The position numbers and the translations under genes were made by a program. This document shows, piece after piece, positions 24,692 to 54,050 of a stretch of 54,847 nucleotides of DNA. Position 1 is the first letter of the stretch; each line of letters starts with the position of its first letter. The notes beneath the pieces are model-generated. The model was not told where the DNA came from. It saw nothing but the letters and a program-made list of their open reading frames with translations, and ran no database searches. The DNA comes from Escherichia coli (GTDB lineage Bacteria; Pseudomonadota; Gammaproteobacteria; Enterobacterales; Enterobacteriaceae): assembly GCF_003334385.1 (NCBI RefSeq), contig NZ_QOWN01000031.1. One strand, written 5' to 3'.

Positions 24692-24699
24692 TCGTAGGC

Positions 24700-24880
<181 letters not shown>

Positions 24881-24885
24881 ACCAG

Positions 24886-26459: not shown

Positions 26460-26576
26460 GCGTCTTAAAACTCCTGTGGTGCACAACTCTCGGCTTTAGA
26501 GGGCACAGAGAATAGCACGGAAAGAGAGTAAGGAAAACGGTTGCGTGGCTGTGAAATCAGCAAAGTTGCGGGTTTT

Positions 26577-27299
26577 TTAAAACGGAAAATGAATCAGCTC
26601 AACGTCATCCGCCGTGACTTTCACCATCGAACCTTCCGTATGCCAGGCACCCAGTACCACGCGAAAAGCAGGTTGCTGGTTGGCGATAAGTTCATGTACC
26701 GCCGGGCGATGGGTATGCCCGTGAATCAGCCATTGCACCTGATGTTTTTCCATCGCACTGACCACCGCGTTTTGGTTAACGTCCATGATCGCCAGCGATT
26801 TACTGCTGTTGGCTTCTTTGCTGTTCGCGCGCATTCGCGCGGCAATGCGTTTGCGCACAAACAATGGCAGAGCGAGGAATAGCGTCTGCAGCCAGGGTTT
26901 GTGGACTTTGGCGCGAAAAGCCTGATAACCCGCGTCATCGGTGCACAGCGTGTCGCCATGCATAATCAACACCCGACGACCATAAAGTTCGAGCACCTTT
27001 TCTTCCGGCAATAACGTCATGCCGCTTTCACGGGCAAAGCGTTTGCCGAGCAGAAAATCACGGTTGCCATGAATGAAATAACAGGGAACGCCGGAATCGG
27101 ACACCGCTTTGATCGCTGCCGCCATCTGGCGATGGAGTGGGTTGGGATCGTCGTCGCCAATCCACGCTTCAAACAGATCGCCAAGAATATACAGCGCGTC
27201 GGCCTTGCGAGCTTCCCCCGCTAAAAAACGCAGAAAACCGGCGGTGATCGCCGGTTCTTCCACGCAGAGATGAAGATCTGCAATAAAGAGTGTCGCCAC
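26577..27299 (-). CDS. lpxH: UDP-2,3-diacylglucosamine pyrophosphatase
   Basis: 240-aa calcineurin-like phosphoesterase ([11 protein letters not shown]...GNRD). Confidence 0.9.
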
Positions 27300-27301
27300 G
27301 A

Positions 27302-27796
27302 TTACTCGCTAACGGTCACGCTTTCAATGATAACGTCTTCTTTTGGCACGTCCTGGTGCATACCGCTACGACCGGTTGCAACACCTTTGATTTTGTCTAC
27401 CACGTCCATGCCTTCAACCACTTCAGCAAACACGCAGTAGCCCCAACCTTGCAGGCTTTCGCCAGAGAAGTTCAGGAAGTCGTTATCAACCACGTTGATG
27501 AAGAACTGTGCAGTTGCAGAGTGCGGAGCCTGAGTACGGGCCATTGCCAGCGTACCACGGGTATTTTTCAGACCGTTGTTGGCTTCGTTTTTGATCGGTT
27601 CTTTGGTGGCTTTTTGTTTCATGCCCGGTTCAAAACCGCCGCCCTGAATCATAAAGCCGTTGATAACACGGTGGAAAATGGTGTTGTTGTAAAAACCTTC
27701 GCGGCAGTAGTCCAGGAAGTTTTTAACTGTTTCAGGTGCTTTATCGTCAAAAGTTTTGATGACAATATCGCCGTGATTGGTGTGGAAAGTAACCAT
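27302..27796 (-). CDS. ppiB: Peptidyl-prolyl cis-trans isomerase B (cyclophilin)
   Basis: 164-aa [30 protein letters not shown]. Confidence 0.9.
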
Positions 27797-27969
27797 TTTT
27801 GCATCCTGTTCCGTTTGATTGGTGCTTCAACCCGGTTCGGGTCATATATAGGGTGGTGTTATAGCATAACCGCACGATCGGATCATCACGCAATGTATGC
27901 TGATTCGCGCGGGAAATATGGGTATTATACGCAACTCAATTACCCACACATGTCTAAACGGAATCTTCG

Positions 27970-29355
27970 ATGCTAAAAATCTTCAATACTCTGACACGCC
28001 AAAAAGAGGAATTTAAGCCTATTCACGCCGGGGAAGTCGGCATGTACGTGTGTGGAATCACCGTTTACGATCTCTGTCATATCGGTCACGGGCGTACCTT
28101 TGTTGCTTTTGACGTGGTTGCGCGCTATCTGCGTTTCCTCGGCTATAAGCTGAAGTATGTGCGCAACATTACCGATATCGACGACAAAATCATCAAACGC
28201 GCCAATGAAAATGGCGAAAGCTTTGTAGCGCTGGTGGATCGCATGATCGCCGAAATGCACAAAGATTTTGATGCGTTGAACATTCTGCGCCCGGATATGG
28301 AGCCGCGCGCGACGCACCATATCGCAGAAATTATTGAACTCACTGAACAACTGATCGCCAAAGGTCACGCTTATGTGGCGGACAACGGCGACGTGATGTT
28401 CGACGTCCCGACCGATCCGACATATGGCGTGCTGTCGCGTCAGGATCTCGACCAGCTGCAGGCAGGCGCGCGCGTTGACGTGGTCGACGACAAACGCAAC
28501 CCGATGGACTTCGTTCTGTGGAAGATGTCGAAAGAGGGCGAACCGAGCTGGCCGTCTCCGTGGGGCGCGGGCCGTCCAGGCTGGCACATTGAATGTTCGG
28601 CAATGAACTGCAAGCAGCTGGGTAACCACTTTGATATCCACGGCGGCGGTTCAGACCTGATGTTCCCGCACCACGAGAACGAAATCGCGCAGTCCACCTG
28701 TGCCCATGATGGTCAGTATGTTAACTACTGGATGCACTCCGGAATGGTGATGGTTGACCGCGAGAAGATGTCCAAATCGCTGGGTAACTTCTTTACCGTG
28801 CGCGATGTGCTGAAATACTACGATGCTGAAACCGTGCGTTACTTCCTGATGTCGGGCCACTATCGCAGCCAGCTGAACTACAGCGAAGAGAACCTGAAGC
28901 AGGCGCGTGCGGCGCTGGAGCGTCTCTACACTGCGCTGCGCGGCACCGATAAAACCGTTGCGCCTGCCGGTGGCGAAGCGTTTGAAGCGCGCTTTATTGA
29001 AGCGATGGACGACGATTTCAACACCCCGGAAGCCTATTCCGTGCTGTTTGATATGGCGCGTGAAGTGAACCGTCTGAAAGCAGAAGATATGGCAGCGGCG
29101 AATGCAATGGCATCTCACCTGCGTAAACTTTCCGCTGTATTGGGCCTGCTGGAGCAAGAACCGGAAGCGTTCCTGCAAAGCGGCGCGCAGGCAGACGGCA
29201 GCGAAGTGGCTGAGATTGAAGCGTTAATTCAACAGCGTCTGGATGCCCGTAAAGCGAAAGACTGGGCGGCGGCAGATGCGGCGCGTGACCGTCTTAACGA
29301 GATGGGGATCGTGCTGGAAGATGGCCCGCAAGGGACCACCTGGCGTCGTAAGTAA
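27970..29355 (+). CDS. cysS: Cysteinyl-tRNA synthetase
   Basis: 461-aa class I aaRS with HIGH (CHIGHGRT) and KMSKS motifs. Confidence 0.95.
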
Positions 29356-29365
29356 TTGCGCTATT

Positions 29366-29389
29366 GCCGGATGCGAGTTTTCGCATCCG
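29366..29389. terminator. Hairpin between convergent cysS and ybcI (likely bidirectional terminator/REP-like)
   Basis: ccggatgcgagttttcgcatccgg palindrome directly after the cysS stop. Confidence 0.5.
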
Positions 29390-29390
29390 G

Positions 29391-29912
29391 TTATCGTCTG
29401 TGCCACCACAACATTCCCATCAGTAGAATCCCCGGCAACCACACCCACATCAATTCAGAAATAATCACCTGATGCCCGTACGGCGTGGTGTAACGAGACA
29501 ATGCAAACGGCGCGACTTTAATCACCTGCCAGGGAGCGAAAAAGCGTTCATCTGACCACGGCCACAGCCAGCCAACCCCTTTACCGCCAGTGGTTACCGA
29601 ATCCAGCAAGCTGTGCGATAGCAACGAGACGGTTAAAAACAGCCAGCAGCGAATCAGCCCAGCCCTGAACCATCGGCGTCCAATCAGCACACATAACAGC
29701 GGGACAACAAACGCAAACACCAGCGAATGGGTAAACCCGCGATGACCAAAAACATTGCCGTAAGCAATGCCAAATTTAAACGACAATACGTCGGCGTCGG
29801 GCAGCATCGCCAGGATGATTCCGGCAAATAACAGACGCGGAGGGATGACTTTCGAACCCAACCCTAAACCAATGCATAGGGGAACGGCGGCGTGCGTAAT
29901 AACGGTTGGCAT
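29391..29912 (-). CDS. ybcI: Inner membrane protein (DUF457-like)
   Basis: 173-aa hydrophobic ORF; synteny. Confidence 0.75.
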   Translation of the reverse strand: MPTVITHAAVPLCIGLGLGSKVIPPRLLFAGIILAMLPDADVLSFKFGIAYGNVFGHRGFTHSLVFAFVVPLLCVLIGRRWFRAGLIRCWLFLTVSLLSHSLLDSVTTGGKGVGWLWPWSDERFFAPWQVIKVAPFALSRYTTPYGHQVIISELMWVWLPGILLMGMLWWHRR

Positions 29913-30019
29913 GATGGTCGCTTCGGCAAAATGTCGATGCTATCAGCATGGATGAACGGGGCGTAGAGGGCAAAAGTCTGAAAAGAGAACCGGCCTGTTG
30001 ATACAGGCCGGGAAAGGGA

Positions 30020-30232
30020 TCAGGCAACAACCTGTACGCTGTGACCTGCAAAACTCACTGTCTGACCGGCGACGATTTTGCAGCGTTTGCGCGTTTCAAC
30101 CGCGCCATCGACTTTCACCTGGCCTTCGGCAATCGCGATTTTCGCCTGCGCGCCGCTTTCGCTCCAGCCTTCCAGTTTCAGCAAGTCGCACAGCTCAACG
30201 TGCGGATGTTTACCTAAAGAAAATGTCGCCAT
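30020..30232 (-). CDS. ybcJ: S4-domain RNA-binding protein
   Basis: Start taken at MATFSLGKHPHVELCDLLK (70 aa) within ORF 30020-30286; located just downstream of folD. Confidence 0.75.
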   Translation of the reverse strand: MATFSLGKHPHVELCDLLKLEGWSESGAQAKIAIAEGQVKVDGAVETRKRCKIVAGQTVSFAGHSVQVVA

Positions 30233-30233
30233 G

Positions 30234-31100
30234 TTACTCACCCTGTGGATCATGATATTCAACGCACGCCTGTAGCGTGTTTTCAATCAGCGTGGCAACC
30301 GTCATCGGGCCAACGCCGCCGGGAACAGGCGTAATGTATGAGGCGCGTTTAGCCGCGTCTTCAAACACCACGTCGCCCACAACTTTGCCATTTTCCAGAC
30401 GGTTGATGCCGACATCAATCACAATTGCGCCTTCTTTGATCCAGTCACCAGGAATAAAGCCCGGCTTGCCGACGGCAACGATCAACAGATCGGCATTTTC
30501 TACGTGATGACGCAGATTTTTAGTGAAGCGGTGAGTCACGGTAGTGGTGCAACCTGCTAGCAGCAGTTCCATGCTCATCGGGCGGCCAACGATATTCGAT
30601 GCGCCAATCACCACGGCGTTGAGGCCGAAGGTATCAATGTTGTAACGCTCAAGCAGCGTGACGATGCCGCGCGGGGTGCAGGGACGCAGACGCGGCGCGC
30701 GCTGGCACAGGCGACCGACGTTATAAGGATGGAAACCGTCTACGTCTTTGTCCGGGTGAATACGTTCCAGTACTTTGACGTTATCAATACCCGCCGGTAA
30801 CGGCAGTTGAACCAGAATGCCATCAATGGTGTTGTCGGCATTCAGCGCATCGATAAGCTCCAGCAGCTCCGCTTCGCTGGTGGTTTCCGGGAGGTCATAA
30901 GAGCGGGAGACGAACCCGACTTCTTCACAAGCCTTGCGTTTGCTTGCGACATAAATTTGCGATGCAGGGTTACTACCCACCAGCACAACGGCCAGTCCTG
31001 GTGCCCGCAGTCCGGCTGCAATACGCGCCTGAACTTTTTGAGCAACTTCAGAGCGCACCTGCTGCGCAATCGTTTTACCGTCAATAATCTTTGCTGCCAT
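30234..31100 (-). CDS. folD: Bifunctional methylenetetrahydrofolate dehydrogenase/cyclohydrolase
   Basis: Start taken at [19 protein letters not shown] (288 aa); the ORF track extends to 31196. Confidence 0.9.
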
Positions 31101-31579
31101 CAGAGAGAGGATTCCATCTGTTACGTAGGTCGAAGGGGATGCGCCTATTTTGTCAGAAGCGGGGCGCGCTGTCAGGTTTCGTTTCAGATTTATCACGTGA
31201 AGCGACCTCTTGCGAAGGTTAGGCGCACCGTCGCTGAGGTCGCTGAGATTGAAAGCTTCATTTTTCGTCCATGATGGCGTTGTAAATCTGGAACTGACTT
31301 ATTTCCTTGTCTAAGGATTAAGATAATTTAAGAAATACCTGACAATATAAAAAGAATTTTCAGCCTGGTAATTTACCGCTTCAGGTCTATATTTGTGTTG
31401 AATATATTTTGCGCGGAAGTATTCATCTAACGGGGCTCTCTATTTTTTAGAATAGAGTGCATATTTTCAATTAAGACATTCTTAGAGGATAAAAAGGAAT
31501 TTACTACTATCAGTGTCTTAAATAAAGTAATCGGTTATATACGGATGTGGAGTCGATAAATGAGATTGAAGGAATATAT

Positions 31580-32122
31580 ATGAAATTAAGATTTATTTCG
31601 TCTGCGCTGGCTGCCGCACTATTCGCCGCTACGGGTAGTTATGCTGCCGTTGTAGATGGCGGTACAATTCACTTTGAAGGCGAACTGGTGAATGCTGCCT
31701 GTTCAGTGAATACTGACTCGGCAGACCAAGTTGTCACACTCGGTCAATATCGTACCGATATTTTCAATGCTGTTGGTAATACCTCTGCATTAATTCCATT
31801 CACCATTCAGTTGAACGACTGCGATCCTGTTGTTGCCGCTAATGCTGCCGTTGCATTTTCTGGTCAGGCTGATGCAATCAATGATAATTTATTGGCCATT
31901 GCATCCAGTACCAATACAACAACAGCAACGGGTGTCGGTATTGAAATACTTGATAATACATCCGCAATTCTCAAACCTGATGGGAATAGCTTCTCAACCA
32001 ACCAGAACTTGATCCCCGGGACCAACGTTCTTCATTTTTCTGCACGTTATAAAGGCACCGGTACAAGTGCATCAGCAGGGCAAGCAAATGCTGACGCGAC
32101 TTTTATTATGAGATACGAATAA
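31580..32122 (+). CDS. sfmA: Type 1-like fimbrial major subunit
   Basis: Start at [22 protein letters not shown] (signal peptide); fimbrial subunit fold; operon order A-C-D-H-F. Confidence 0.85.
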
Positions 32123-32341
32123 TCAAAACCACGTTGTTTTGAATTATATATCACGTCTTATAACAAAGTAATGTACCGGTTGTCTGAAGCGGTATGGTGG
32201 CAATGTAAATCGAAATCATGCTCACTTTGTATCATGCCGCTTTATTAAATGAAAAGGGAATGATGTGTTGTAAGAAACCAAAGCAATCATTTCTTTATAT
32301 TTCTTATTTTTGCCGTCAGGAATACACAAGGCGTATTAACT

Positions 32342-33034
32342 ATGATGACTAAAATAAAGTTATTGATGCTCATTATATTTTATTTAATCATTTCGGCCAG
32401 CGCCCATGCTGCCGGAGGGATCGCATTAGGTGCCACGCGTATTATTTATCCCGCTGATGCTAAACAGACTGCGGTATGGATTAGAAATAGCCATACCAAT
32501 GAGCGTTTTCTGGTCAATTCGTGGATTGAAAACAGCAGCGGTGTAAAAGAAAAGTCATTCATCATTACACCGCCACTATTTGTTAGTGAACCCAAAAGCG
32601 AAAATACTTTGCGTATTATTTACACCGGTCCACCGCTGGCGGCAGATCGTGAGTCTCTGTTCTGGATGAATGTTAAGACGATCCCTTCGGTAGATAAAAA
32701 TGCATTGAACGGCAGGAATGTTTTGCAACTGGCGATTTTATCGCGCATGAAGTTATTTCTCCGTCCAATTCAATTACAAGAATTACCCGCAGAAGCGCCG
32801 GACACACTCAAGTTTTCGCGATCCGGTAACTATATCAATGTTCATAATCCATCACCTTTTTATGTCACCCTGGTTAACTTACAAGTGGGCAGCCAAAAGT
32901 TGGGGAATGCTATGGCTGCACCCAGAGTTAATTCACAAATTCCCTTACCCTCAGGAGTGCAGGGAAAGCTGAAATTTCAGACCGTTAATGATTATGGTTC
33001 AGTAACCCCGGTCAGAGAAGTGAACTTAAACTAA
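32342..33034 (+). CDS. sfmC: Periplasmic fimbrial chaperone
   Basis: 230-aa PapD-like chaperone with signal peptide. Confidence 0.85.
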
Positions 33035-33064
33035 CCGAATCATCTGACAATATCAGAGCTAATT

Positions 33065-35674
33065 ATGAAAATACCCACTACTACGGATATTCCGCAGAGG
33101 TATACCTGGTGTCTGGCCGGAATTTGTTATTCATCTCTTGCCATTTTACCCTCCTTTTTAAGCTATGCGGAAAGTTATTTCAACCCGGCATTTTTATTAG
33201 AGAATGGCACATCCGTTGCTGATTTATCGCGCTTTGAGAGAGGTAATCATCAACCTGCGGGCGTGTATCGGGTGGATCTCTGGCGTAATGATGAGTTCAT
33301 TGGTTCACAGGATATCGTATTTGAATCGACAACAGAAAATACAGGTGATAAATCAGGTGGGTTAATGCCCTGTTTTAACCAGGTACTCCTTGAACGAATT
33401 GGCCTTAATAGCAGTGCATTTCCCGAGTTAGCCCAGCAGCAAAATAATAAATGCATCAATTTACTGAAAGCTGTACCTGATGCCACAATTAACTTTGATT
33501 TTGCAGCGATGCGCCTGAACATCACTATTCCTCAGATAGCGTTGTTGAGTAGCGCTCACGGTTACATTCCGCCTGAAGAGTGGGATGAAGGTATTCCTGC
33601 TTTACTCCTGAATTATAATTTCACTGGTAACAGAGGTAATGGTGACGATAGCTATTTTTTTAGTGAGCTCAGCGGGATTAATATTGGCCCGTGGCGTTTA
33701 CGCAACAATGGTTCCTGGAGCTATTTTCGCGGAAATGGGTATCATTCAGAACAGTGGAATAATATTGGCACCTGGGTACAGCGCGCCATTATTCCGCTGA
33801 AAAGTGAACTGGTAATGGGAGACGGCAATACAGGAAGTGATATTTTCGATGGTGTTGGATTTCGTGGTGTACGGCTTTACTCTTCCGATAATATGTATCC
33901 TGATAGCCAGCAAGGGTTTGCCCCAACAGTACGTGGGATTGCCCGTACGGCGGCCCAGCTAACGATTCGGCAAAATGGTTTTATTATCTATCAAAGCTAT
34001 GTTTCCCCCGGCGCTTTTGAAATTACAGATTTGCACCCGACATCTTCAAATGGCGATCTGGACGTCACCATCGACGAGCGCGATGGCAATCAGCAGAATT
34101 ACACTATTCCGTATTCAACAGTGCCAATTTTACAACGCGAAGGGCGTTTCAAATTTGACCTGACGGCGGGCGATTTTCGTAGCGGTAATAGTCAGCAATC
34201 ATCGCCTTTCTTTTTTCAGGGCACGGTACTCGGCGGTTTACCACAGGAATTTACTGCCTACGGCGGGACGCAATTATCTGCCAATTACACCGCCTTTTTA
34301 TTAGGGCTGGGGCGCAACCTCGGGAACTGGGGCGCAGTGTCGCTGGATGTGACCCATGCGCGCAGTCAGTTAGCCGACGATAGTCGTCATGAGGGGGATT
34401 CTATTCGCTTCCTCTATGCGAAATCGATGAACACCTTCGGCACCAATTTTCAGTTAATGGGTTACCGCTATTCGACACAAGGTTTTTATACCCTTGATGA
34501 TGTTGCGTATCGTCGAATGGAGGGGTACGAATATGATTACGATTACGACGGTGAGCATCGCGATGAACCGATAATCGTGAATTACCACAATTTACGCTTT
34601 AGCCGTAAAGACCGTTTGCAGTTAAATATTTCACAATCACTTAATGACTTTGGCTCGCTTTATATCTCTGGTACCCATCAAAAATACTGGAATACATCGG
34701 ATTCAGATACGTGGTATCAGGTGGGGTATACCAGCAGCTGGGTTGGCATCAGTTATTCGCTCTCATTTTCGTGGAATGAATCTGTAGGGATCCCCGATAA
34801 CGAACGTATTGTCGGACTTAATGTTTCAGTGCCTTTCAATGTTCTGACCAAACGTCGCTACACCCGGGAAAATGCGCTCGACCGCGCTTATGCCTCCTTT
34901 AACGCCAACCGTAACAGCAACGGGCAAAATAGCTGGCTGGCAGGTGTAGGTGGGACCTTACTGGAAGGCCACAACCTGAGTTATCACGTAAGCCAGGGTG
35001 ATACCTCGAATAATGGGTATACGGGCAGCGCCACGGCAAACTGGCAGGCCGCTTACGGTACGCTGGGGGTCGGGTATAACTACGACCGCGATCAACATGA
35101 CGTTAACTGGCAGCTGTCTGGCGGTGTGGTCGGGCATGAAAATGGCATAACGCTGAGCCAGCCTTTAGGGGATACCAATGTTTTGATTAAAGCGCCTGGC
35201 GCAGGCGGTGTACGCATTGAAAATCAAACTGGCATTTTAACCGACTGGCGCGGCTATGCGGTGATGCCGTATGCCACGGTTTATCGGTATAACCGTATCG
35301 CGCTTGATACCAATACGATGGGGAATTCCATCGATGTTGAAAAAAATATTAGCAGCGTTGTGCCGACGCAAGGCGCGTTGGTTCGTGCCAATTTTGATAC
35401 CCGCATAGGCGTGCGGGCGCTCATTACCGTTACCCAGGGCGGAAAACCGGTGCCGTTTGGATCACTGGTACGGGAAAACAGTACCGGAATAACCAGTATG
35501 GTGGGTGATGACGGGCAAGTTTATTTAAGTGGTGCGCCATTGTCTGGTGAATTACTGGTTCAGTGGGGAGACGGCGCGAACTCACGCTGCATTGCGCACT
35601 ATGTATTGCCGAAGCAAAGCTTACAGCAAGCCGTCACTGTTATTTCGGCAGTTTGCACACATCCTGGCTCATAA
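33065..35674 (+). CDS. sfmD: Fimbrial outer-membrane usher
   Basis: 869-aa usher-family ORF. Confidence 0.85.
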
Positions 35675-35686
35675 AGGAAATTATCA

Positions 35687-36694
35687 ATGAAGATAATCTG
35701 CAGATTATTATTGGCGATGGCATGTTTGTGTCTGGCAAACATATCCTGGGCTACTGTTTGTGCAAATAGTACTGGCGTAGCAGAAGATGAACACTATGAT
35801 CTCTCAAATATCTTTAATAGCACCAATAACCAGCCAGGGCAGATTGTTGTTTTACCGGAAAAATCCGGCTGGGTAGGTGTCTCAGCAATTTGTCCACCCG
35901 GCACGCTGGTGAATTATACATACCGTAGTTATGTCACCAACTTTATTGTTCAGGAAACTATCGATAATTATAAATATATGCAATTAAATGATTATCTATT
36001 AGGTGCGATGAGTCTGGTTGATAGTGTTATGGATATTCAGTTCCCCCCGCAAAATTATATTCGGATGGGAACAGATCCTAACGTTTCGCAAAACCTTCCA
36101 TTCGGGGTGATGGATTCTCGTTTAATATTTCGTTTAAAGGTTATTCGTCCCTTTATTAACATGGTGGAGATCCCCAGACAGGTGATGTTTACCGTGTATG
36201 TGACATCAACGCCTTACGATCCGTTGGTTACACCTGTTTATACCATTAGTTTTGGTGGCCGGGTTGAAGTACCGCAAAACTGCGAATTAAATGCCGGGCA
36301 GATTGTTGAATTTGATTTTGGTGATATCGGCGCATCGTTATTTAGTGCGGCAGGGCCGGGTAATCGACCTGCTGGTGTCATGCCGCAAACCAAGAGCATT
36401 GCGGTCAAATGTACGAATGTTGCTGCGCAGGCTTATTTAACAATGCGTCTGGAAGCCAGTGCCGTTTCTGGTCAGGCGATGGTGTCGGACAATCAGGATT
36501 TAGGTTTTATTGTCGCCGATCAGAACGATACGCCGATCACGCCTAACGATCTCAATAGCGTTATTCCTTTCCGTCTGGATGCAGCTGCGGCAGCCAATGT
36601 CACACTTCGCGCCTGGCCTATCAGTATTACCGGTCAAAAACCGACCGAAGGGCCGTTTAGCGCGCTGGGGTATTTACGCGTCGATTATCAATGA
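35687..36694 (+). CDS. sfmH: Fimbrial adhesin-like subunit
   Basis: 335-aa ORF with signal peptide, FimH-like position after the usher. Confidence 0.8.
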   Translation: MKIICRLLLAMACLCLANISWATVCANSTGVAEDEHYDLSNIFNSTNNQPGQIVVLPEKSGWVGVSAICPPGTLVNYTYRSYVTNFIVQETIDNYKYMQLNDYLLGAMSLVDSVMDIQFPPQNYIRMGTDPNVSQNLPFGVMDSRLIFRLKVIRPFINMVEIPRQVMFTVYVTSTPYDPLVTPVYTISFGGRVEVPQNCELNAGQIVEFDFGDIGASLFSAAGPGNRPAGVMPQTKSIAVKCTNVAAQAYLTMRLEASAVSGQAMVSDNQDLGFIVADQNDTPITPNDLNSVIPFRLDAAAAANVTLRAWPISITGQKPTEGPFSALGYLRVDYQ

Positions 36695-38097: not shown

Positions 38098-38174
38098 GCG
38101 CCCTTAGCTCAGTTGGATAGAGCAACGACCTTCTAAGTCGTGGGCCGCAGGTTCGAATCCTGCAGGGCGCGCCA
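38098..38174 (+). tRNA. argU: tRNA-Arg (anticodon UCU)
   Basis: 77-nt cloverleaf sequence gcgcccttagctcagttggatagagcaacgaccttctaagtcgtgggccgcaggttcgaatcctgcagggcgcgcca, anticodon loop cuUCUaa, encoded CCA end. Confidence 0.95.
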
Positions 38175-42958: not shown

Positions 42959-43035
42959 GGCTGAACTCCTGAAAATGGCTGTGAAAATAGCGCCCGCGAA
43001 ATGCCAGGCTGATTAGGAAAACAGGAAAGGGGGGG

Positions 43036-43446
43036 TTAGTGATTCAGGCCGTTACCGCGTCCGTCGAGAAAAACTTCCACGAGCAAATCACGGGTATAAG
43101 TGCGCTCGATGCCGCGATGCAGATAAAGCCGTCCGCGTAAATTAGCTGATGCTGTCCAGGTACCATCTTTGTGTTTGACCAGCATTCCTGGCATGACCGC
43201 GCCGCGATTAACGGTCTGCGTTCCGTAATGTTGATGAACCATAAAAACTCCTGCCCGTAAGCTGGGCTGCTGAACATATAGAGACTTCTGCGCGTATTCA
43301 GGCGGTGGATGGCCGCCGGTTGTCATAACTAAGCCGCCTCGTTGAAGCGACTGAGGTATGAAATGTTGAGTTAATTTCAGCTGGTCACACCGACGTTCAC
43401 GCGTCCGTTTCACCCCTCGCACTCCCCGAAGCCTGCTGAAATTCAA
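43036..43446 (-). CDS. First gene downstream of the putative pL; arginine-rich N-terminus, possible N-like antiterminator or kil/cIII-position protein
   Basis: 136-aa ORF; N-terminal RLRGVRGVKRTRERR resembles an arginine-rich RNA-binding motif; position relative to OL/pL. Confidence 0.35.
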   Translation of the reverse strand: MNFSRLRGVRGVKRTRERRCDQLKLTQHFIPQSLQRGGLVMTTGGHPPPEYAQKSLYVQQPSLRAGVFMVHQHYGTQTVNRGAVMPGMLVKHKDGTWTASANLRGRLYLHRGIERTYTRDLLVEVFLDGRGNGLNH

Positions 43447-43463
43447 ACTGCGGATCTAAGCGG

Positions 43464-43515
43464 TCATCGCAACGGTGAATCAGGTAGTTGCCGTATCGTT
43501 GTGTTGTTGCGATGA
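43464..43515. promoter_or_regulatory. 10-bp perfect inverted repeat in the leader between the putative pL and the first early-left gene
   Basis: tcatcgcaac (43464-43473) and gttgcgatga (43506-43515) separated by 32 nt. Confidence 0.35.
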
Positions 43516-43519
43516 ACTT

Positions 43520-43600
43520 ATTTAAAACTATAGTTGTTTTATCGTCAACAACAAAAGTTGTTTTATTGGTTGTTTTAGATATAACTGGTTGTATTTAGGA
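43520..43600 (-). promoter_or_regulatory. Putative OL/pL: leftward promoter embedded in GTTGTT/AACAAC operator half-sites
   Basis: Minus-strand gttgTTGACGataaaacaactatagttTTAAAT is a near copy of the pR-side sequence; palindrome aacaacaaaagttgtt at 43555-43570. Confidence 0.5.
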
Positions 43601-43677
43601 TGGATTTATTTTGTGACTTGCATCGCACAGCGATAACTGAAGCGAGGTCGTGGTGGTTTTTTGAACTGTTTGTGTGA

Positions 43678-43705
43678 TGAGGGGAGGCAAAAGAAAACCC
43701 GGCAC
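43678..43705 (-). terminator. Rho-independent terminator ending the cI-defence-candidate transcript
   Basis: Minus strand cccggccgtcgtgccggg stem-loop (6-bp GC stem) followed by ttttctttt, 15 nt after the stop of the 287-aa ORF. Confidence 0.6.
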
Positions 43706-43719
43706 GACGGCCGGGGAAA

Positions 43720-44583
43720 TCATTTCGCATCTACAATAAATAACCTGTTTATCTGGCCTTTTTTAACAGTAGCCTTTGCGGTTATAGTGAATACTGCAGA
43801 TGGATCACCTTTGGTTGATATATATGCACTAAGAGCTCTAATATACGGGTTATTCTTCTTTCCTGCAGCTGGATCGCTAATTTCAGCAGTGATTCTCTTT
43901 TTTGAGTCATCACCATCTAAAATTATTTTAGCTGTCATATTTTGTGCATCAAATTCTGTAAGAAAAGCACGATACTCACGAAGACCGAGAACTTCATCAT
44001 CATCAAGCCTATCAATTTCAGCTTTATCTCTCTCGTTAACTTTTAGAAGGCAGCCGTCAACATTTGTTGCAACACTTATCTGATCGCAAGTATTACCAAT
44101 AGGTGATACTGCCTGCCTTACAGAGGGGCGAAGCTCTACAGCCATTCGGTCAATCAAAGAGATCAACTTATCAATGGTTCCAGCATCCTTGTTTCCCAGT
44201 GCCTCTATGGCCTTTTCAAGTGACTGCTGCAAAGCTTTCATTTCATCTTTCTTGTTAGAATTTCTCGCAAAAATATATTGTAGTATTGCGCCAAGTATAG
44301 TTGCGGCGATCCCCGAGAACAACTGGTTCTGAGTGGCGAAGTTAAGAACTGCTTCAAGAGTAAAGCAGTTAGCTTTTGCTTCGCGTGCGTAAACCTTAAC
44401 TTCCTGATAATTAATGTATTTACTATATTTTTGTGTAACAGAGAAAGAAGCTGCTGTTGAGAGAACTTTAGAAAAACCCTTTAGGGATTCTCCTAGGCAG
44501 TTCAAATCTATTTCATGATTTAAAGCATCTTTTCCGTCATACCTAAGAGAGATTTTTATATCCTGTAAAGCGTCACAATCCAT
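43720..44583 (-). CDS. Unknown-function 287-aa protein at the rexAB-equivalent immunity-region locus; candidate lysogen-expressed anti-phage/superinfection-exclusion protein
   Basis: Directly downstream of and co-oriented with the cI-like repressor; visibly AT-rich versus flanks; central hydrophobic segment [19 protein letters not shown]; followed by an intrinsic terminator; no motif I can assign. Confidence 0.55.
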
Positions 44584-44649
44584 AAATCGCTCTCGTCTAA
44601 TTCTAATTAAATTTACTATCCCCTAAACGACTCATCAGCACAGTACTGA

Positions 44650-45339
44650 TTATCCATGTTTCCTGTACGTCTGGGGCATGCTCCCAATAACCTTACCGAA
44701 GATGAACACACGGTTCATCTCGTCTTTCTCGATCGGGTCCCACGGTGAGTAGCTCTTGTTATCAGAGATAACCAGCAGCTTATCCTTCATCATTTGCAGG
44801 CGCTTTACATGGGCTGTGTCGTCGTACAGAAACGCATAGATACCATCACCGTCGAAAGATTTAACCGTGATATCAACGAACAGCAGATCACCTGGTTCGA
44901 TCGTTCCTGACATGCTGTCACCACGCACGTTAATGATGCGGATATTTTCCGCCTTCCTACCATCGAACATGTGACGAGCATCGTCAAACGAGTACTCAAC
45001 CGAGCGTAGAACTTCTACAAACTCACGGTTGATGACTCCCGGCCCAGCACTGACTTCTATATCAAGAACGTCAATCTTGAAGTATTTGGAATGGCTGACA
45101 GTTGATTGTATTGGTTGCACTGTACTGTCTGACATATTTCCAACGCCAGAAGATAACCATTCTGCGCGCACACCCAAAGCGTTCGCGATCTCCACGATTT
45201 TAGTTGTTTGATTAGCTTTCCCTGTTTCGATTTTCTGAATAGCAGCCTGGCTAACCCCGACCAAATCCCCAAGCGCCTTTTGTGTAAGGCCTCGCGCTAA
45301 TCTGGCTTCTTTAAGTCTTTCTGAGAGTGTTGTTTTCAT
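44650..45339 (-). CDS. cI-like prophage repressor (HTH plus S24 LexA-like autopeptidase domain)
   Basis: Start taken at MKTTLSERLKEARLARGLTQKALGDLVGVSQAAIQKIETG (XRE HTH); C-terminal domain with GDSM motif (NVRGDSMSGTIEPGD) and a downstream lysine (HVKRLQ); divergent from cro. Confidence 0.8.
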   Translation of the reverse strand: MKTTLSERLKEARLARGLTQKALGDLVGVSQAAIQKIETGKANQTTKIVEIANALGVRAEWLSSGVGNMSDSTVQPIQSTVSHSKYFKIDVLDIEVSAGPGVINREFVEVLRSVEYSFDDARHMFDGRKAENIRIINVRGDSMSGTIEPGDLLFVDITVKSFDGDGIYAFLYDDTAHVKRLQMMKDKLLVISDNKSYSPWDPIEKDEMNRVFIFGKVIGSMPQTYRKHG

Positions 45340-45443
45340 AGTCCAAATGTACAACCAAGGTTTTATTCCATCAAACGAAAATGGTTGTTGACTAAAAACA
45401 ACCATAGTTTTAATCTTGATTCAAATTAACCACGGAGGTTGTT
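45340..45443. promoter_or_regulatory. Putative OR region with pR (and presumably pRM) between cI and cro
   Basis: Palindrome ATGGTTGTTgactaaaAACAACCAT (45381-45405); TTGACT (45388-45393), 17-nt spacer, TAATCT (45411-45416); additional GGTTGTT/AACAACC half-sites at about 45350 and 45437. Confidence 0.6.
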
Positions 45444-45674
45444 ATGAACCCAGCTATCAAAACAGCGATCAATATCGTTGGTTCACAAAAGAAACTGGGC
45501 GCTGCTTGCGAAGTTTCACAGCAGGCCGTCTATAAGTGGCTTCACAACAAAGCAAAGGTATCCCCTGAACATGTCGGCAGCATTGTTACGGCTACTGGTG
45601 GAGTAGTGAAGGCATACCAGATTCGCCCGGATCTTCCGAAGTTGTTTCCACACACCGAAAAGAACGCAGCTTAA
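45444..45674 (+). CDS. Cro-like small DNA-binding protein
   Basis: 76-aa ORF divergent from cI with GGAGG ribosome-binding site; HTH-like segment LGAACEVSQQAVYKWL. Confidence 0.65.
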   Translation: MNPAIKTAINIVGSQKKLGAACEVSQQAVYKWLHNKAKVSPEHVGSIVTATGGVVKAYQIRPDLPKLFPHTEKNAA

Positions 45675-45743
45675 ATTTCCATTTCACGCTCTTTAACAAT
45701 AAGCAATCAACTTAACAGTCAATTCAAACTAAAGGAGTCAATT

Positions 45744-48696: not shown

Positions 48697-49110
48697 ATGA
48701 GCAACATCGACAAACGCGCATTACGTGAAATCGCTGAGGCAGCAGTTGGTGCACATGAGCGCCTTAGTGTTATGCCGCCTGATGACATTTTCGATATCTC
48801 ACTGGCAGAAGGAACTCAGCTTGATGCAGATATCACTGCCTTGAGCGCGCTGAACTCCGCAGCCAACCCAGCCACAGTGCTGGCGCTGCTGGATGAGCTG
48901 GAAGCCAAAGACCAGAGGATTGCTGTGCTGACCGAATCGCTCAAGCAGACGGTTTCAGGATACAAATCCTGCCTGCGTACCGGACATGAGCGCATTCTTG
49001 ACCTTGGCGGTGACTGTGACGCGCCAGAAGTGATGATTGCAGGCAATCCTGACATTCAGCAGGCGCAGAAGCTGATCGCCGCCGCATCCGGTAAAGGAGA
49101 GGCATCATGA
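48697..49110 (+). CDS. Hypothetical phage protein, possibly Ead/Ea22-like N-terminal module
   Basis: 137-aa ORF MSNIDKRALREIAEAAVGAHERL...ALLDELEAKDQRIAVL (coiled-coil-like); the same first 6 codons recur at 48481 in a truncated copy. Confidence 0.4.
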   Translation: MSNIDKRALREIAEAAVGAHERLSVMPPDDIFDISLAEGTQLDADITALSALNSAANPATVLALLDELEAKDQRIAVLTESLKQTVSGYKSCLRTGHERILDLGGDCDAPEVMIAGNPDIQQAQKLIAAASGKGEAS

Positions 49111-49151
49111 GCACTATTACCAAACAATGACTGCAGCAGAAAATTGCCGAC

Positions 49152-49913
49152 ATGGAAGCAGCCAGAGATGAAATCCCGTTCGGTCTGGACGAAGGCGACA
49201 GCAACACGCTGGCGGCACTGCGTATCGCGCTGGCATCGCTCGAAGCGGAGCCTGCCATTCACCGGTGGCGTCGTGTGACCTCTGAGCCATACGGCCCCTA
49301 TCCTTGGCATTATGGTGATTTTATCGGCTTCTCAAAGCCCGTTGATGGGATTGAGGATGAGTATTTTTACTCCGCCCCGCCAGAGCCAGCCAATGCCGAA
49401 ACCGTAGCCTGGCTGTGGTCACACAGGAAACACCCGAGCGAAGTCACGCTTGTTCGCCCTGAAGATGATGAGAGAGCGGAGGGTGCTCACTGGTCTGGCT
49501 GGAGTTGTCAGGCGCTTTATGCAGCACCGCCAGTTCCGGTATCTGTGCCCACATTCGAGAAATGGTGTGAGTTGACTGAGCAGAAACCTGTCGGATGGGG
49601 GCGTGATGCTATGAAAGAAGCGTATGACGGATGCCGCGACGCCATGCTTCAGGGTGCCGAAAAAGCCGAGTCGCCCACCACCATGCAGACCGCGCCAGCC
49701 CTAGATTCTTCGCCAAAAATTTCCGAGTCGCCCGTCAGCAACTCTCCGGTGATTCCGGATGGTTGGGTGCTGGTTCCTAAGGAGCCAACTCCAGAAATGC
49801 GTGAGGCGTACCATCAGGCGCAGGAAGAGTGTGAAGATGGCGGTAGATTATGGAGCCCAGACCACCAATGGAAGGCCATGATCGCAGCAGCACCGCAGCA
49901 GGAGGCGAAGTGA
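49152..49913 (+). CDS. Hypothetical phage protein, possibly Ea22-like C-terminal part
   Basis: 253-aa ORF with PTPEMREAY motif near the C-terminus; separated from the preceding ORF by stops in all frames. Confidence 0.35.
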   Translation: MEAARDEIPFGLDEGDSNTLAALRIALASLEAEPAIHRWRRVTSEPYGPYPWHYGDFIGFSKPVDGIEDEYFYSAPPEPANAETVAWLWSHRKHPSEVTLVRPEDDERAEGAHWSGWSCQALYAAPPVPVSVPTFEKWCELTEQKPVGWGRDAMKEAYDGCRDAMLQGAEKAESPTTMQTAPALDSSPKISESPVSNSPVIPDGWVLVPKEPTPEMREAYHQAQEECEDGGRLWSPDHQWKAMIAAAPQQEAK

Positions 49914-49964
49914 TTATGTCGTGACAGCATAATTGCGATGTCAACGATAAGCAGAGGTTTGAAA

Positions 49965-50159
49965 ATGAAATCACAATCACCAGTGCAGCATGAAGTTAAC
50001 ATCGACGGCAAAGAGTATGTTGTCACAGTAGTCCAAACCGGCAAGTCAACGTGGAGGGCATGGGGAGATTCCTGGGGGCGCCATATAGTCGAAACAGGTT
50101 CTAGCGAACATAGCGCGCTTTCTCATTGGAAAGCAAAAGCTTTAGTTATGAATGGGTAG
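49965..50159 (+). CDS. Hypothetical small protein
   Basis: Start taken at MKSQSPVQHEVNIDGKEYVV within ORF 49938-50159. Confidence 0.3.
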   Translation: MKSQSPVQHEVNIDGKEYVVTVVQTGKSTWRAWGDSWGRHIVETGSSEHSALSHWKAKALVMNG

Positions 50160-50182
50160 CGCGGAAACTTTGAAGGTATAAT

Positions 50183-50208
50183 CCCCTCAAATAATCGAGG
50201 GGGTTTTT
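50183..50208 (+). terminator. Intrinsic terminator hairpin directly abutting the start of the following cargo gene
   Basis: cccctcaaataatcgagggg followed by gttttt; the 3' arm overlaps the probable ribosome-binding site of the ORF starting at 50209. Confidence 0.5.
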
Positions 50209-50718
50209 ATGTCTGGTTGGGATAACGGTATAGATGCAGTTTCTGCGATTGCAGCTATCGCATCTGCGGTAGCAACTTATTTAGCATGGCGATCCTCAGA
50301 AGCTAGCAGGGCCACATCCGAAAAAGCTTTGCAGTTGCAAGGAAAGCAGTATTTGTACGAGACATTAAAAGCTTGCGCTGAGAGAGCGAATTCATACTCA
50401 AAAGGAAAGAAAGGGGCTGACTGGAGCTTTCATGACGCAGCCAATATTGTTCGATGTTTGAACATGGCAATGGGGAGCATAATAAATTACTCAGATACCA
50501 ACAATCAGGATGCAATGAAAGGTCTGAAGCAATTCTTTATTAGCCAATTAAACATGGAGCTTTTTGAAGAGCTCAACTATGAGGTTGGGCCTGATGCCTT
50601 CTTTCACGGAGAGGAGCTAACCAGCATGACGAGCGATATTTACTCGCAGTGGTTAAACATTATTTCATTCTTTAACCTCATGATTGTCACAGATGATGAC
50701 CTCGCCGATGAAACATAG
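50209..50718 (+). CDS. Unknown-function 169-aa membrane-anchored protein; moron-like cargo
   Basis: N-terminal hydrophobic helix (IDAVSAIAAIASAVATYLAW); AT-rich; insulated by an upstream hairpin and a 187-bp downstream spacer; occupies the variable locus that carries emrE/ybcKLM in K-12 DLP12. Confidence 0.5.
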   Translation: MSGWDNGIDAVSAIAAIASAVATYLAWRSSEASRATSEKALQLQGKQYLYETLKACAERANSYSKGKKGADWSFHDAANIVRCLNMAMGSIINYSDTNNQDAMKGLKQFFISQLNMELFEELNYEVGPDAFFHGEELTSMTSDIYSQWLNIISFFNLMIVTDDDLADET

Positions 50719-50905
50719 CTTGATTGATTTTCCATAATCAACCCGCCATAATCATGTCATCGGAGCCTGAACAACTCCGGTGACTTCTGCGCTAAACGGG
50801 GACGTTTATGCGCATATACAATCCAAACTCTCTTCTCCCTTCACAGATGCAGAAATGCACCTGCGTTTTTTTGCATCCAACGTTTGACCTCTGCGGAGGT
50901 GAAGC

Positions 50906-51361
50906 GTGAACCTCCCACAAGACGGTATCAAATTGCATCGCGGTAACTTCACCGCTATCGGTCAGCAGATCCAGCCTTATCTGGAGGACGGAAAATGCTT
51001 TCGCATGGTGCTTAAACCGTGGCGTGAGAAACGCAGTCTTTCCCAGAATGCACTCAGCCACATGTGGTACAGCGAAATCAGTGAATACCTCATCAGCAGG
51101 GGTAAAACGTTCGCCACTCCAGCTTGGGTAAAAGATGCTCTCAAACACACATATCTCGGTTATGAAACCAAAGACTTGGTTGATGTCGTAACCGGTGAGA
51201 TCACCACTATCCAGTCGTTACGCCATACCTCCGATCTTGATACCGGAGAGATGTATATCTTCCTGTGTAAGGTTGAAGCCTGGGCGGTGAATATTGGCTG
51301 CCACCTGACTATTCCGCAGAGCTGCGAGTTCCAGCTGCTCCGCGACAAACAGGAGGAGTAA
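50906..51361 (+). CDS. ybcN: DLP12-type NinB-position protein (DNA base-flipping protein)
   Basis: 151-aa translation [50 protein letters not shown] matches K-12 YbcN as I recall it; GTG start with GGAGG ribosome-binding site. Confidence 0.8.
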
Positions 51362-51531
51362 TGGCTACACCGCTTATTCGTGTCATGAACGGACACATCT
51401 ACAGAGTACCAAATCGTCGTAAGCGTAAACCGGAGCTGAAGCCTTCCGAAATACCAACACTGCTCGGATATACCGCCAGCCTGGTTGATAAAAAATGGTT
51501 GCGACTGGCAGCAAGGAGGAATCATGGCTGA
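51361..51531 (+). CDS. ninE: NinE-like protein
   Basis: 56-aa [59 protein letters not shown]; not in the ORF track because it is under 60 aa. Confidence 0.7.
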   Translation: MATPLIRVMNGHIYRVPNRRKRKPELKPSEIPTLLGYTASLVDKKWLRLAARRNHG

Positions 51532-51814
51532 TTTGAGAAAAGCAGCGCGTAGTCGGGAATGCCAGGTAAGAATCCCTGGCGTATGTAATGGCAACCCTGA
51601 AACGTCTGTACTGGCACATATCCGGCTGACTGGATTGTGCGGCACCGGTACCAAACCGCCAGACCTGATTGCCACCATTGCATGTTCTGCCTGCCACGAC
51701 GAAATCGACCGCCGCACACATTTTGTCGATGCTGCATATGCAAAAGAATGCGCGCTGGAAGGTATGGCGAGAACACAGGTTATCTGGCTGAAAGAGGGGG
51801 TTATTAAGGCGTGA
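51524..51814 (+). CDS. ybcO: DUF1364-family putative nuclease
   Basis: Start at [28 protein letters not shown] (96 aa); Cys-rich; overlaps the ninE end. Confidence 0.75.
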
Positions 51815-52173
51815 ATACCTACAGCATCACATTACCCTGGCCTCCGAGCAATAATCGCTATTACCGCCATAATCGCGGGCGCACGCACGTCAGCGCAGAG
51901 GGGCAGGCATACCGCGATAACGTCGCCCGAATCATTAAAAACGCAATGCTGGATATCGGCCTGGCTATGCCTGTGAAAATCCGCATTGAGTGCCACATGC
52001 CGGATCGCCGTCGCCGTGACCTGGATAATCTGCAAAAAGCCGCTTTTGACGCACTCACTAAAGCAGGTTTCTGGCTGGATGATGCTCAGGTCGTTGATTA
52101 CCGCGTTGTGAAGATGCCTGTTACCAAAGGTGGGAGGCTGGAACTGACCATCACCGAAATGGGGAATGAATGA
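51811..52173 (+). CDS. rusA: Holliday junction resolvase RusA
   Basis: 120-aa translation [31 protein letters not shown] matches K-12 RusA as I recall it. Confidence 0.9.
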
Positions 52174-52967: not shown

Positions 52968-54050
52968 TTAGAACTGGTAAACCATACCTACAGCAACGAT
53001 ATCATCGGTAGCAACGCCAGATGCTTTCGTGAAATCGCTCTTATCAATCAGGTTGATTTTGTAGTCAACAAAAGTGGACATATTTTTGTTGAAGTAATAG
53101 GTTGCACCTACATCAACATATTCAACCAGGTCCTGATCACCCCAAACACCCAAGTCTTTTCCTTTAGAATGCAGGTAAGCAACGGATGGACGCAGGCCGA
53201 AGTCGAACTGATATTGTGCAACAGCTTCGAAGTTTTGTGCTTTGTTGGCAATATGGTTATTACCAAAAACAGTCATGTTCTGGGTTTCAGAATAGGTGGT
53301 GGCCAGATAGATGTTGTTCGCATCATATTTCAGACCAGCTGCCCATACTTCAGCATTTTGACCAGAAGCATTCAGACCGTTGTTACCGTAGATAACCTGA
53401 TTATTAGTGCGATCAGATTTAGCATAGGTTGCACCCACGCCGAATCCTTCATACTCATAAGTAGTTGAGAAACCGAAACCATCGCCATTAGCTTCAGTTA
53501 CTTCATTTCGGTCATTTTTGCCCTGATACTGAGCTGCAAAGTTCAGGCCATCAACCAGACCAAAGAAGTCGTTGTTACGATAAGTTGCAACACCTGTGGT
53601 GCGACCAGTCATGAATACATCTGTTTGGGTCCAGGTATCGCCACCGAATTCTGGCAGAACGTCAGTCCACGCACCGATGTCGTATGCTACACCGTAGTTA
53701 CGGCCGTAATCGATTGAGCCGTAGTCACCGAATTTCAGGCCTGCAAATGCAAGACGGGTTTTGTCTTTGGAGGAACCTTGAGATTCAGCGCGGTTGCCTT
53801 TGAATTCATATTCCCACTGACCGAAACCAGTCAGTTGATCGTTGATTTGGGTTTCACCTTTGAAGCCAAGACGGGCATAAGTAGTATCACCATCATCTGC
53901 ATCATTAGAGGAGAAGTAGTGCTTAGCATTAACTTTCCCGTACAGATCCAGCTTGTTACTGTCTTTATTATAAATTTCAGCTGCCTGAGCAGACATCGCC
54001 ATCAGTACTGATGCAGCTACAGCAGAAATTGCCACTGTTAATTTTTTCAT
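52968..54050 (-). CDS. nmpC: OmpC-family general porin, uninterrupted
   Basis: 360-aa ORF with signal peptide [23 protein letters not shown], beta-barrel porin sequence ending in the typical C-terminal F (VGMVYQF); lies between quuD and essD. Confidence 0.85.

Follow-up and report, generated by a model that had tools for sequence, protein, structure and literature searches.

A structured leader and a predicted inner-membrane protein of PHROG 1779 form a cargo cassette before ylcH–ninB in a DLP12-like prophage of Escherichia coli

We analyzed a 54,847-nucleotide stretch of Escherichia coli DNA (contig NZ_QOWN01000031.1, assembly GCF_003334385.1), which is called the window below; coordinates refer to it, and genes, leaders and hairpins lie on the plus strand unless stated. 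It contains a DLP12-like lambdoid prophage integrated at argU, beside tRNA-Arg(tct) (38098–38174). Between ren and ninB, this prophage carries a cassette of ~545 bp (50177–50718), consisting of a structured leader and one gene for a 169-residue protein of the family PHROG 1779. The gene is accessory prophage cargo in a mosaic junction that was already known, while the gene itself was uncharacterised. We hold with high confidence the gene and its family, the selection acting on it, the predicted topology of its product, the leader hairpin and its conservation, the borders of the cassette, and the hotspot in which it sits. For the whole chain, including the promoter, expression and function, we judge the chance to be somewhat short of even that the protein is a membrane factor made in the lysogen, which would exclude or abort other phages.

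The open reading frame (ORF) at 50209–50718, which a first-pass annotation of the sequence had picked out, starts with ATG and encodes a predicted single-pass inner-membrane protein with an all-helical cytoplasmic domain. The surrounding region is 100% identical to that of E. coli SCU-104, where the product is annotated as a hypothetical protein (WP_000017329.1). The PHROG 1779 profile matched residues 3–167 of the 169 with an E-value of 2.5e-77, and distant relatives matched it as well. The window allele, annotated as a hypothetical protein, was found in 26 of 5426 complete E. coli genomes. The family as a whole occurs in at least 201 of these (at least 3.7%), including O104:H4, with 0 on plasmids in the collection, and in only 3 of 50,697 phage records. 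It forms 29 clusters in a set of 5.8 billion proteins (90% identity) and has 36 representatives in one of 1.84 billion (50% identity). Full-length members have ~150–180 residues; besides these, there are fragments and one protein of 288 residues. The named sources all belong to the Enterobacterales (Escherichia, Enterobacter, Serratia, Scandinavium, Citrobacter, Hafnia, Pantoea and an Erwinia phage). PHROG 1779 is a small temperate-phage family limited to this order, with no known function.

Against eight diverged alleles (synonymous divergence dS of 0.36–2.7, up to saturation), the ratio of nonsynonymous to synonymous substitution (dN/dS) was 0.08–0.26. These values indicate a functional protein under selection, and rule out a pseudogene or a chance ORF. 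The gene had been described as AT-rich, which proved to be moderately so: its GC content is 43.1%, as compared with 50.0% for ninB, 57.5% for the upstream 253-residue ORF and 49.2% for the window. The GC content at third codon positions is 0.46, versus 0.57–0.60 in the flanking genes, and the overall value is also below those of the neighboring Ea22 and DUF551 genes. A GC content no different from the flanks had been set beforehand as a possible refutation of the cargo proposal; the computed values differ.

The first-pass annotation recognized no motif in the soluble domain, and the profile searches of Pfam, NCBIfam, PADLOC and the PDB gave the same picture. Pfam-A returned no match for the window protein even at E ≤ 10, none that was significant for 35 relatives or for the 288-residue P0056, and no Sie, Imm or Abi family for the window protein or the 35 relatives. 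NCBIfam gave no match to the window protein. PADLOC (PADLOC-DB 2.0, E up to 10) assigned 0 families to it, and merely scattered, inconsistent matches with E ≥ 0.0018 to the 20 relatives scanned. The sequence-profile search of the PDB gave no match. With an AlphaFold2 (AF2) model as the query, Foldseek retrieved the protein's own family only from AFDB50 and nothing from BFVD at E ≤ 0.001, and the fold is without a known relative. Homology to a nin-region protein of known function, which had also been named as a refuting outcome, was not found. Our literature search yielded no description of the PHROG 1779 family or of ylcH, and located DUF4760 in one paper, within a gene table only. This last name needs comment, as UniProt gives it (DUF4760, PF15956) to four of the AFDB50 structural matches, and the size class (~150–200 residues) is alike. 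Three of the four are clear relatives (one from Citrobacter, two from Pantoea; 21–55% identical) and the fourth is marginal (E 0.065). The DUF4760 hidden Markov model matched neither the window protein at E ≤ 10 nor any of the 35 relatives at E ≤ 0.1, and the precomputed Pfam column was empty for every family match. Since the model matches none of the scanned members, we regard DUF4760 as a name and not as a membership. DUF4760 is an uncharacterised family of bacterial and viral proteins, and belonging to it would add nothing mechanistic.

The N-terminal hydrophobic helix proposed in the first reading was borne out by the hydropathy calculation, in which the best 19-residue Kyte–Doolittle window covers residues 8–26 (score 1.74). 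The helix (50230–50289, codons 8–27) is a predicted membrane anchor rich in conserved small residues (motif S12-A16-A20). A hydrophobic segment is present at this end in 35/35 aligned members, reaching a Kyte–Doolittle score of at least 1.6 in 28/35. Across the 35 relatives, the N-terminal flank is acidic and nearly devoid of Lys and Arg (mean K+R 0.17, net charge −1.1), and the C-terminal flank is basic (mean K+R 3.2, net charge +1.9). Taken with the positive-inside rule, the flank charges predict an N-out/C-in orientation, with the helical domain in the cytoplasm, and this topology signature is kept in 35/35 relatives. A Sec signal peptide in place of an anchor was ruled out from the acidity of the N-terminal flank and its lack of Lys and Arg. 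The small-residue pattern within the helix is conserved as S-A-[IV]-[AG]-[AGT]-[IVF]-[AG]-[SA]-A, which suggests a specific helix–helix packing beyond mere anchoring.

The AF2 model, built from the 35-sequence alignment, is all-alpha with a mean predicted local distance difference test (pLDDT) value of 77.9, and contains a single long helix over residues 6–64. The core, at about residues 41–160, has mean values of 75–95 per ten-residue block. Residues A20, S33, Q44, L53, A57, N61, W72, A87, I91, F110, L114, P128 and W148 are nearly invariant, and the family alignment contains no conserved Asp, Glu, His or Cys position. The protein ends in an acidic tail, T-D-D-D-L-A-D-E-T (50689–50715, codons 161–169; alignments A1 and A2), and ~70% of the family members share the C-terminal consensus T-D-E-D-L-x-D. 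The predicted architecture is family-wide: an acidic tail of ~8 residues, predicted to be periplasmic, is followed by a transmembrane helix, an all-helical domain of ~130 residues and often an acidic C-terminal tail. Because the helical domain is without conserved residues of the catalytic type, the protein most likely acts as a binding protein at the membrane's inner face, and not by catalysis, so far as its sequence can indicate.

A strong hairpin overlapping the ribosome-binding site of the gene had been reported from the letters alone, and the terminator scan located it at 50180–50205 (AAUCCCCUC[AAAUAAUC]GAGGGGGUU). It has nine pairs and an 8-nt loop, and is followed by TTT and the ATG. 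The Shine–Dalgarno (SD) element GAGGGGG (50197–50203), 5 nt upstream of the start codon, is the sole SD sequence for the gene. It lies in the 3' arm, and is paired within the hairpin in the centroid fold of the read-through RNA; the 5' arm is the corresponding anti-SD sequence. The folding energy is −14.2 kcal/mol (z = −3.65), none of 200 shuffles was as stable, and the hairpin dominates the ensemble. Fused to the anti-SD arm is a perfect −10-like hexamer, TATAAT (50177–50182), with which the conserved cassette begins on its left side. The G-rich arm is followed by five T (50204–50208), which give the window hairpin its terminator-like look; half of the alleles are without such a run.

The leader was compared among six alleles, which differ by a dS of 0.36–1.9; those other than the window allele are 71–82% identical to it in protein. 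Stems were read sequence by sequence, since indels shift some of them out of register in the MAFFT alignments (A3 and A4). The six alleles have the leader in common, while the DNA further upstream differs. Its layout is an upstream-ORF stop, TG, TATAAT, C4-6TC, a variable loop, GAG4-6, an A/T-rich stretch of 4–6 nt and the ATG. The hairpin folds in every one of them (−14.2 to −17.1 kcal/mol, z = −2.5 to −5.3); the five hairpins outside the window have differing loops and energies of −15.9 to −17.1 kcal/mol. The lengths of the C-run and the G-run in the two arms change together. The segment GTATAATCCC is invariant in the six diverged alleles (alignment A3). Third codon positions are invariant in 27.5% of cases in the same six, giving P ~2.5e-6 for ten consecutive neutral sites. 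The sequence opposite TATAAT varies (TTTTT, ATTATT, GTATT, TTTT, TTATT). As the would-be pairing partner varies, the hexamer is constrained as a sequence and not as part of a stem. The leaders of the more distant PhiR26-type and Serratia alleles are unrelated to the six-allele leader. They also place a −10-like hexamer in the 5' arm of a hairpin that holds the SD element; their stems are weak or AU-rich, and the likeness read from these sequences is only suggestive.

These comparisons bear on a simpler reading, according to which the hairpin is an intrinsic terminator like tR2 that ends the upstream gene block, the gene is expressed by read-through, and the overlap with TATAAT and the SD element is incidental. 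The nin regions of lambdoid phages contain terminators, the scan finds this site 21 nt after an ORF stop with nine pairs (five of them G-C) and five U, and a similar hairpin with a T-run precedes the homologue in locus L011. The U tract is intact in only 3/6 alleles, however, and is interrupted in the other 3/6 (ATTATT, GTATT, TTATT), which keep the stem, the SD element and TATAAT. A conserved terminator was therefore rejected. In addition, terminator-like patterns are not enriched in the region (6 found, 3.8 ± 1.9 expected), and an 8-nt loop with a short U tract predicts weak termination. We consider it quite improbable that the hairpin is a terminator and nothing else.

The reading that we prefer is that TATAAT acts as a weak promoter in the lysogen. 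By promoter geometry, transcription starts ~7 nt after a −10 element, here at ~50189, just past the anti-SD arm. The RNA starting at 50189 was no more structured than shuffled sequences (z = −0.44), and the read-through RNA retained the hairpin (z = −2.83). Messenger RNA from the cassette's own start would thus begin beyond the anti-SD arm and have a free SD element, while read-through transcripts of the early operon would contain the whole hairpin, with the SD element hidden. In the window allele, whose hairpin is followed by five U, it may also partly terminate the read-through transcripts. The repressed prophage would then produce small amounts of the protein. In the fold of the read-through RNA we also observed a long-range helix of 10 bp (50160–50169/50238–50247, CGCGGAAACU/AGUUUCUGCG) that encloses the translation-initiation region. 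It is specific to the upstream context of the window allele and could be due to chance.

The cassette had been described as having the insulated layout of a moron, a term defined by added DNA of deviating GC content with its own promoter and terminator, which is expressed from the repressed prophage (PMC3594210). Part of this description stands. The DNA is added, as the window allele is found in 26/5426 genomes and the flanking leader in 2957/5426; the GC content deviates (43.1% versus 50.0% in ninB and 57.5% in the upstream ORF); and the 5' hairpin is present. A terminator between the stop codon and the ninB leader is absent, so that the insulation does not extend to the 3' side. The homologues in loci L005 and L011/L012 have a strong terminator after the gene. 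As for the promoter, TATAAT is invariant in the six alleles, yet no conserved −35 element and no correctly placed TG accompany it.

Several points weigh against a lysogen-expressed membrane factor. A consensus scan calls no sigma-70 promoter 5' of the gene, either here or in three other contexts, and there is no terminator-like site in 50719–50844, the next one lying inside ylcH. The gene invariably runs in the direction of the early operon, and its distance from a preceding DUF551 gene is often just 34–38 bp; a DUF551 stop codon abutting the leader fits operon expression with translational coupling. With regard to the protein, the AF2 confidence is low for residues 1–40, and the membrane helix is based only on hydropathy and charge bias. 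No known defense or exclusion protein was matched in PADLOC, Pfam, NCBIfam, the PDB or BFVD.

The first of these points lead to the main rival, in which the gene is no moron but an accessory gene of the early lytic phase. Many phages have it at the end of a co-directional accessory block running from ead/Ea22 to DUF551, the DUF551 stop falling 2 nt ahead of the leader; transcription together with the early operon consequently stays a live alternative. The gene would be transcribed from PR (from PL elsewhere) after induction or infection, and the hairpin would serve translational coupling or attenuation, its anti-SD arm being melted by ribosomes that terminate on the upstream ORF. Its product would act in lytic growth or in the lysis–lysogeny decision, for instance bound to a host inner-membrane protein, or it would be an anti-defense factor. 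The co-directional orientation in every context and the lack of a canonical promoter call agree with this, as do the Ea22-like and DUF551 genes upstream in the window and in loci L004, L020–L023, L031 and L032. The upstream stop lies 2 nt before TATAAT in L020, L023, L027 and L028 (it is that of DUF551 in L023), the gene overlaps its upstream neighbor in L005, and the PL contexts place it among delayed-early accessory genes. The invariance of TATAAT opposite a varying partner is left unexplained by such an arrangement. Moreover, the nearest upstream stop in the window (50157–50159) is 21 nt before the 5' arm and belongs to an ORF that the Prokaryotic Genome Annotation Pipeline (PGAP) omits; given the footprint of the ribosome, one terminating there would not reach far enough to melt the arm. 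The GC content is lower than in the adjacent Ea22 and DUF551 genes, and in most contexts the gene is flanked by intergenic gaps, while the early genes around it are closely packed. On balance, we find early-lytic expression rather unlikely, though a serious contender.

In SCU-104, the gene order is repressor, a cro-like gene, YdaT, O, P, ren, small ORFs and an ead/Ea22-like gene, followed by hypothetical proteins of 268, 169 (WP_000017329.1) and 33 residues, ybcN (ninB), ninE, ybcO, rusA, ylcG, quuD and a porin gene. Between the CI-like repressor (44650–45405, minus strand) and Kil (43036–43446) we recognized no N-type antiterminator, and the prophage may be N-independent. Without a recognizable N, the terminator-like hairpin could truly limit read-through into the gene. 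If N is indeed absent, promoters and terminators inside the PR operon carry more weight than in lambda, and the conserved promoter-like leader of the ninB–Q block would also be accounted for. The gene adjacent to the repressor, seen on inspection of 43000–45700, encodes a 287-residue protein of phrog_5147, whose function is unknown.

The interval between ren and ylcH/ninB had been called a cargo-exchange hotspot, and the phages compared do carry different cargo in it. The example cited for this, K-12 DLP12, was accurate: the same interval there holds the unrelated genes emrE, ylcJ, ybcK, ybcL and ybcM. PhiR30_1 carries an acyltransferase and a lipoprotein in the slot, and Perceval a recombinase and a hydrolase. 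In PhiR26_1 (L003 743–2245), PD-lambda-1 on the opposite strand is followed by Rha and then by a 46%-identical homologue of the 169-residue protein, so that a recognized defense cargo shares the hotspot. The K-12 and PhiR26_1 cargoes are alike to the window gene in their position, in an interval ending at the ylcH–ninB leader. They differ in that the genes are unrelated, and in that PD-lambda-1 is a recognized defense system while the 169-residue protein matches no PADLOC model.

In more than 20 contexts inspected, the family gene was always inside a temperate phage or phage-plasmid and never in the core chromosome. In the first kind of context, the gene immediately precedes the ylcH/ninB leader of lambdoid phages whose replication modules are of the O/P or DnaB type (the window, S51, PEC422, O104:H4, PhiR26_1, PhiR5_1 and several metagenomic contigs); in PhiR26_1 and PhiR5_1, PD-lambda-1 and/or Rha lie upstream. 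The gene also follows O/P in another lambdoid; in PL operons, the recombination genes lie on one side of it and xis/int on the other. In a fourth setting, the locus includes genes for an integrase and for Ogr/Delta-like and DNA polymerase III theta-like proteins, and a reverse-transcriptase/SLATT pair is adjacent. The fifth is just before phd/doc in P1-like IncY phage-plasmids, to which a 51-kb Enterobacter phage-plasmid can be added. An ead/Ea22-like gene followed by DUF551 is a frequent upstream neighborhood. A conserved partner gene was rejected, as the neighbors vary among contexts.

Three members of the family merit separate description. A 154-residue PHROG 1779 protein is encoded immediately 5' of phd/doc (L031 4920–5384) in P1-like IncY phage-plasmids of ~93–98 kb from E. 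coli, E. albertii and E. marmotae, where Ea22-like and DUF551 genes again precede it. The 288-residue P0056 (L009 6001–6867) has ~140 extra N-terminal residues with several hydrophobic helices and no Pfam match in this extension, which suggests, at the level of sequence, that the family domain can be joined to a larger membrane module. In E. coli 2020CK-00188 (L015 3488–3997), a deleted prophage has gam fused almost directly to the 169-residue gene. Homology starts at window position 50222 (codon 5), so that the leader is missing; as annotated, the ORF starts with GTG and its N-terminus is new.

The restriction to mobile phage contexts is relevant to the possibility that the cargo serves the host outside phage conflict, as a stress, envelope or colonization factor. 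The slot holds comparable cargo in K-12 and PhiR30_1 (emrE, a ybcL-like periplasmic protein, lipoproteins, porins), and the protein is predicted to reside in the membrane. A host-physiology gene is expected to have chromosomal relatives, though, as gp15 and its relative YebO illustrate in the summary given in PMC3594210, and the more than 20 contexts were all temperate phages or phage-plasmids. We therefore rate such a role as very unlikely.

For the function, the closest analogies are SieB and HK97 gp15, neither of which is homologous to the 169-residue protein; the most likely role, in their manner, would be to impede superinfecting or competing phages at the membrane, whether by superinfection exclusion or by abortive infection. 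In P22 and lambda, SieB is a membrane protein from the PL operon that aborts the superinfecting phage. Like the window gene, sieB is an early-region lambdoid gene co-directional with the early operon, whose product has N-terminal hydrophobic segments, and PHROG 1779 genes also occur in PL operons. The two proteins differ in size and in the number of hydrophobic helices, and the 169-residue gene is without an evident immunity product from an internal start. The 169-residue protein had no Pfam match at E ≤ 10, a result that covers SieB if Pfam has a family for it. HK97 gp15 is an inner-membrane superinfection-exclusion moron (Cumby et al. 2012, as summarised in PMC3594210). As far as that summary describes it, gp15 resembles the present case in being a small single-gene insertion in a lambdoid prophage with a GC content unlike its flanks, which encodes a predicted inner-membrane protein, has no partner gene and is confined to the Enterobacteriaceae. 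There is no sequence or profile similarity between the two. According to the same summary, gp15 lies in the tail operon, is related to the host protein YebO and has demonstrated prophage expression, while the 169-residue gene is in the early region, has no chromosomal relatives, a putative promoter and no downstream terminator. The more specific proposal, that PHROG 1779 would constitute a new inner-membrane exclusion or abortive-infection family whose translation is gated by the transcript start, strikes us as unlikely when taken in full. Under it, only RNA from the cassette's own weak promoter would expose the SD element, read-through from the early operon would go untranslated or be terminated, and a moron would have a compact means of being on in the lysogen and off in lytic growth.

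On its 3' side, the cassette ends at a sharp junction (50719–50723). From 50724 onwards, six bases past the stop codon, the sequence is homologous to phage 82 and many lambdoid phages. The stretch 50719–50905 had been taken for a non-coding spacer of 187 bp belonging to the gene; it contains instead ylcH, a promoter-like site and two covarying hairpins, and it matches 2957/5426 complete E. coli genomes. Given these matches and the onset of homology at 50724, it is the conserved right border of the hotspot, and the cargo owns no spacer. The promoter-like site, TTGATT-17-CATAAT (50724–50752), opens the ylcH–ninB leader and is also a palindrome (TTGATT..AATCAA). Phage 82 is annotated with a putative −35 and −10 at this place. 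The site is kept downstream of many different cargos, with the half-sites TTGAT..ATCAA conserved.

The first leader hairpin (50756–50784, GTCATCGGAG[CCTGAACAA]CTCCGGTGAC) is noted in phage 82 as a "possible regulator-binding site". We collected nine distinct variants with stems of 4–10 bp (7–10 bp in 8/9) and compensatory changes, while the loop is closely similar and reads CCUGAACAA in most of them. As the stems differ and the loop stays, a single-stranded structure is indicated rather than a duplex operator. The second hairpin (50789–50813) presents the ylcH SD element, GGGA, in its loop, and the start codon of ylcH belongs to its 3' arm. Its stems covary around the fixed loop (TAAACG/CGTTTA, CGCATTTAAG/CTTAAATGCG, GCCTGGGAG/CTTCTAGGC and others). 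The gene ylcH itself (50808–50909; orf33 of phage 82) encodes 33 residues, is 85% identical to K-12 YlcH and is annotated in SCU-104; its stop overlaps the GTG start of ninB (ybcN) at 50906. An ORF of 32–33 residues is retained in diverged ylcH–ninB leaders. Within ylcH, the scan reports a terminator-like hairpin with a T-run (50845–50868), the equivalent of which is called in PhiR26_1. The leader is also present in loci L001, L003, L004, L018, L020 and L023–L028.

Rfam, searched at the gathering threshold and at E ≤ 5, gave no match in 49000–52000, and hence none for the hairpins of the ylcH–ninB leader. We rejected the first hairpin as an extra copy of this phage's nut boxB, because the loop motif does not recur in any other hairpin of the window and no N gene was recognized. 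The leader hairpins were likewise rejected as put RNA of HK022 (putL/putR) by sequence comparison, as blastn-short against HK022 24000–36000 gave chance matches of 9–13 nt only.

On its 5' side, the cassette is separated from a DUF551-like gene by orf73 (49938–50159), which is of uncertain status and is not called by PGAP. It had no match in PHROG, PADLOC or NCBIfam. Its last 46 residues are 98% identical to the C-terminus of a 160-residue protein of the DUF551 block in strain S51, and it is absent 5' of the other alleles of the 169-residue gene. The ORF looks like a mosaic remnant. Without a homologue beside other alleles, it was ruled out as a conserved partner. Elsewhere in the window, Rfam gave gathering-score matches to the enterobacterial small RNAs ES036 (CssrF) and STnc480 at 16479–16613, outside the prophage. 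The segment 53900–54400 is very AT-rich (GC 27–33%) and lies directly upstream of a porin gene on the minus strand (52968–54050).

The conserved, structured ylcH–ninB leader can be used as an anchor for cataloguing the cargo of this slot across genomes. Should the function of the 169-residue protein turn out otherwise than proposed, it would be one more hypothetical accessory gene in a well-known lambdoid mosaic junction. If it is an exclusion or abortive-infection factor, PHROG 1779 would add a single-gene, membrane-anchored family to the defenses carried by prophages, and the −10 element fused to an anti-SD hairpin would provide a simple example of how cargo within an early operon may be insulated from lytic transcription.

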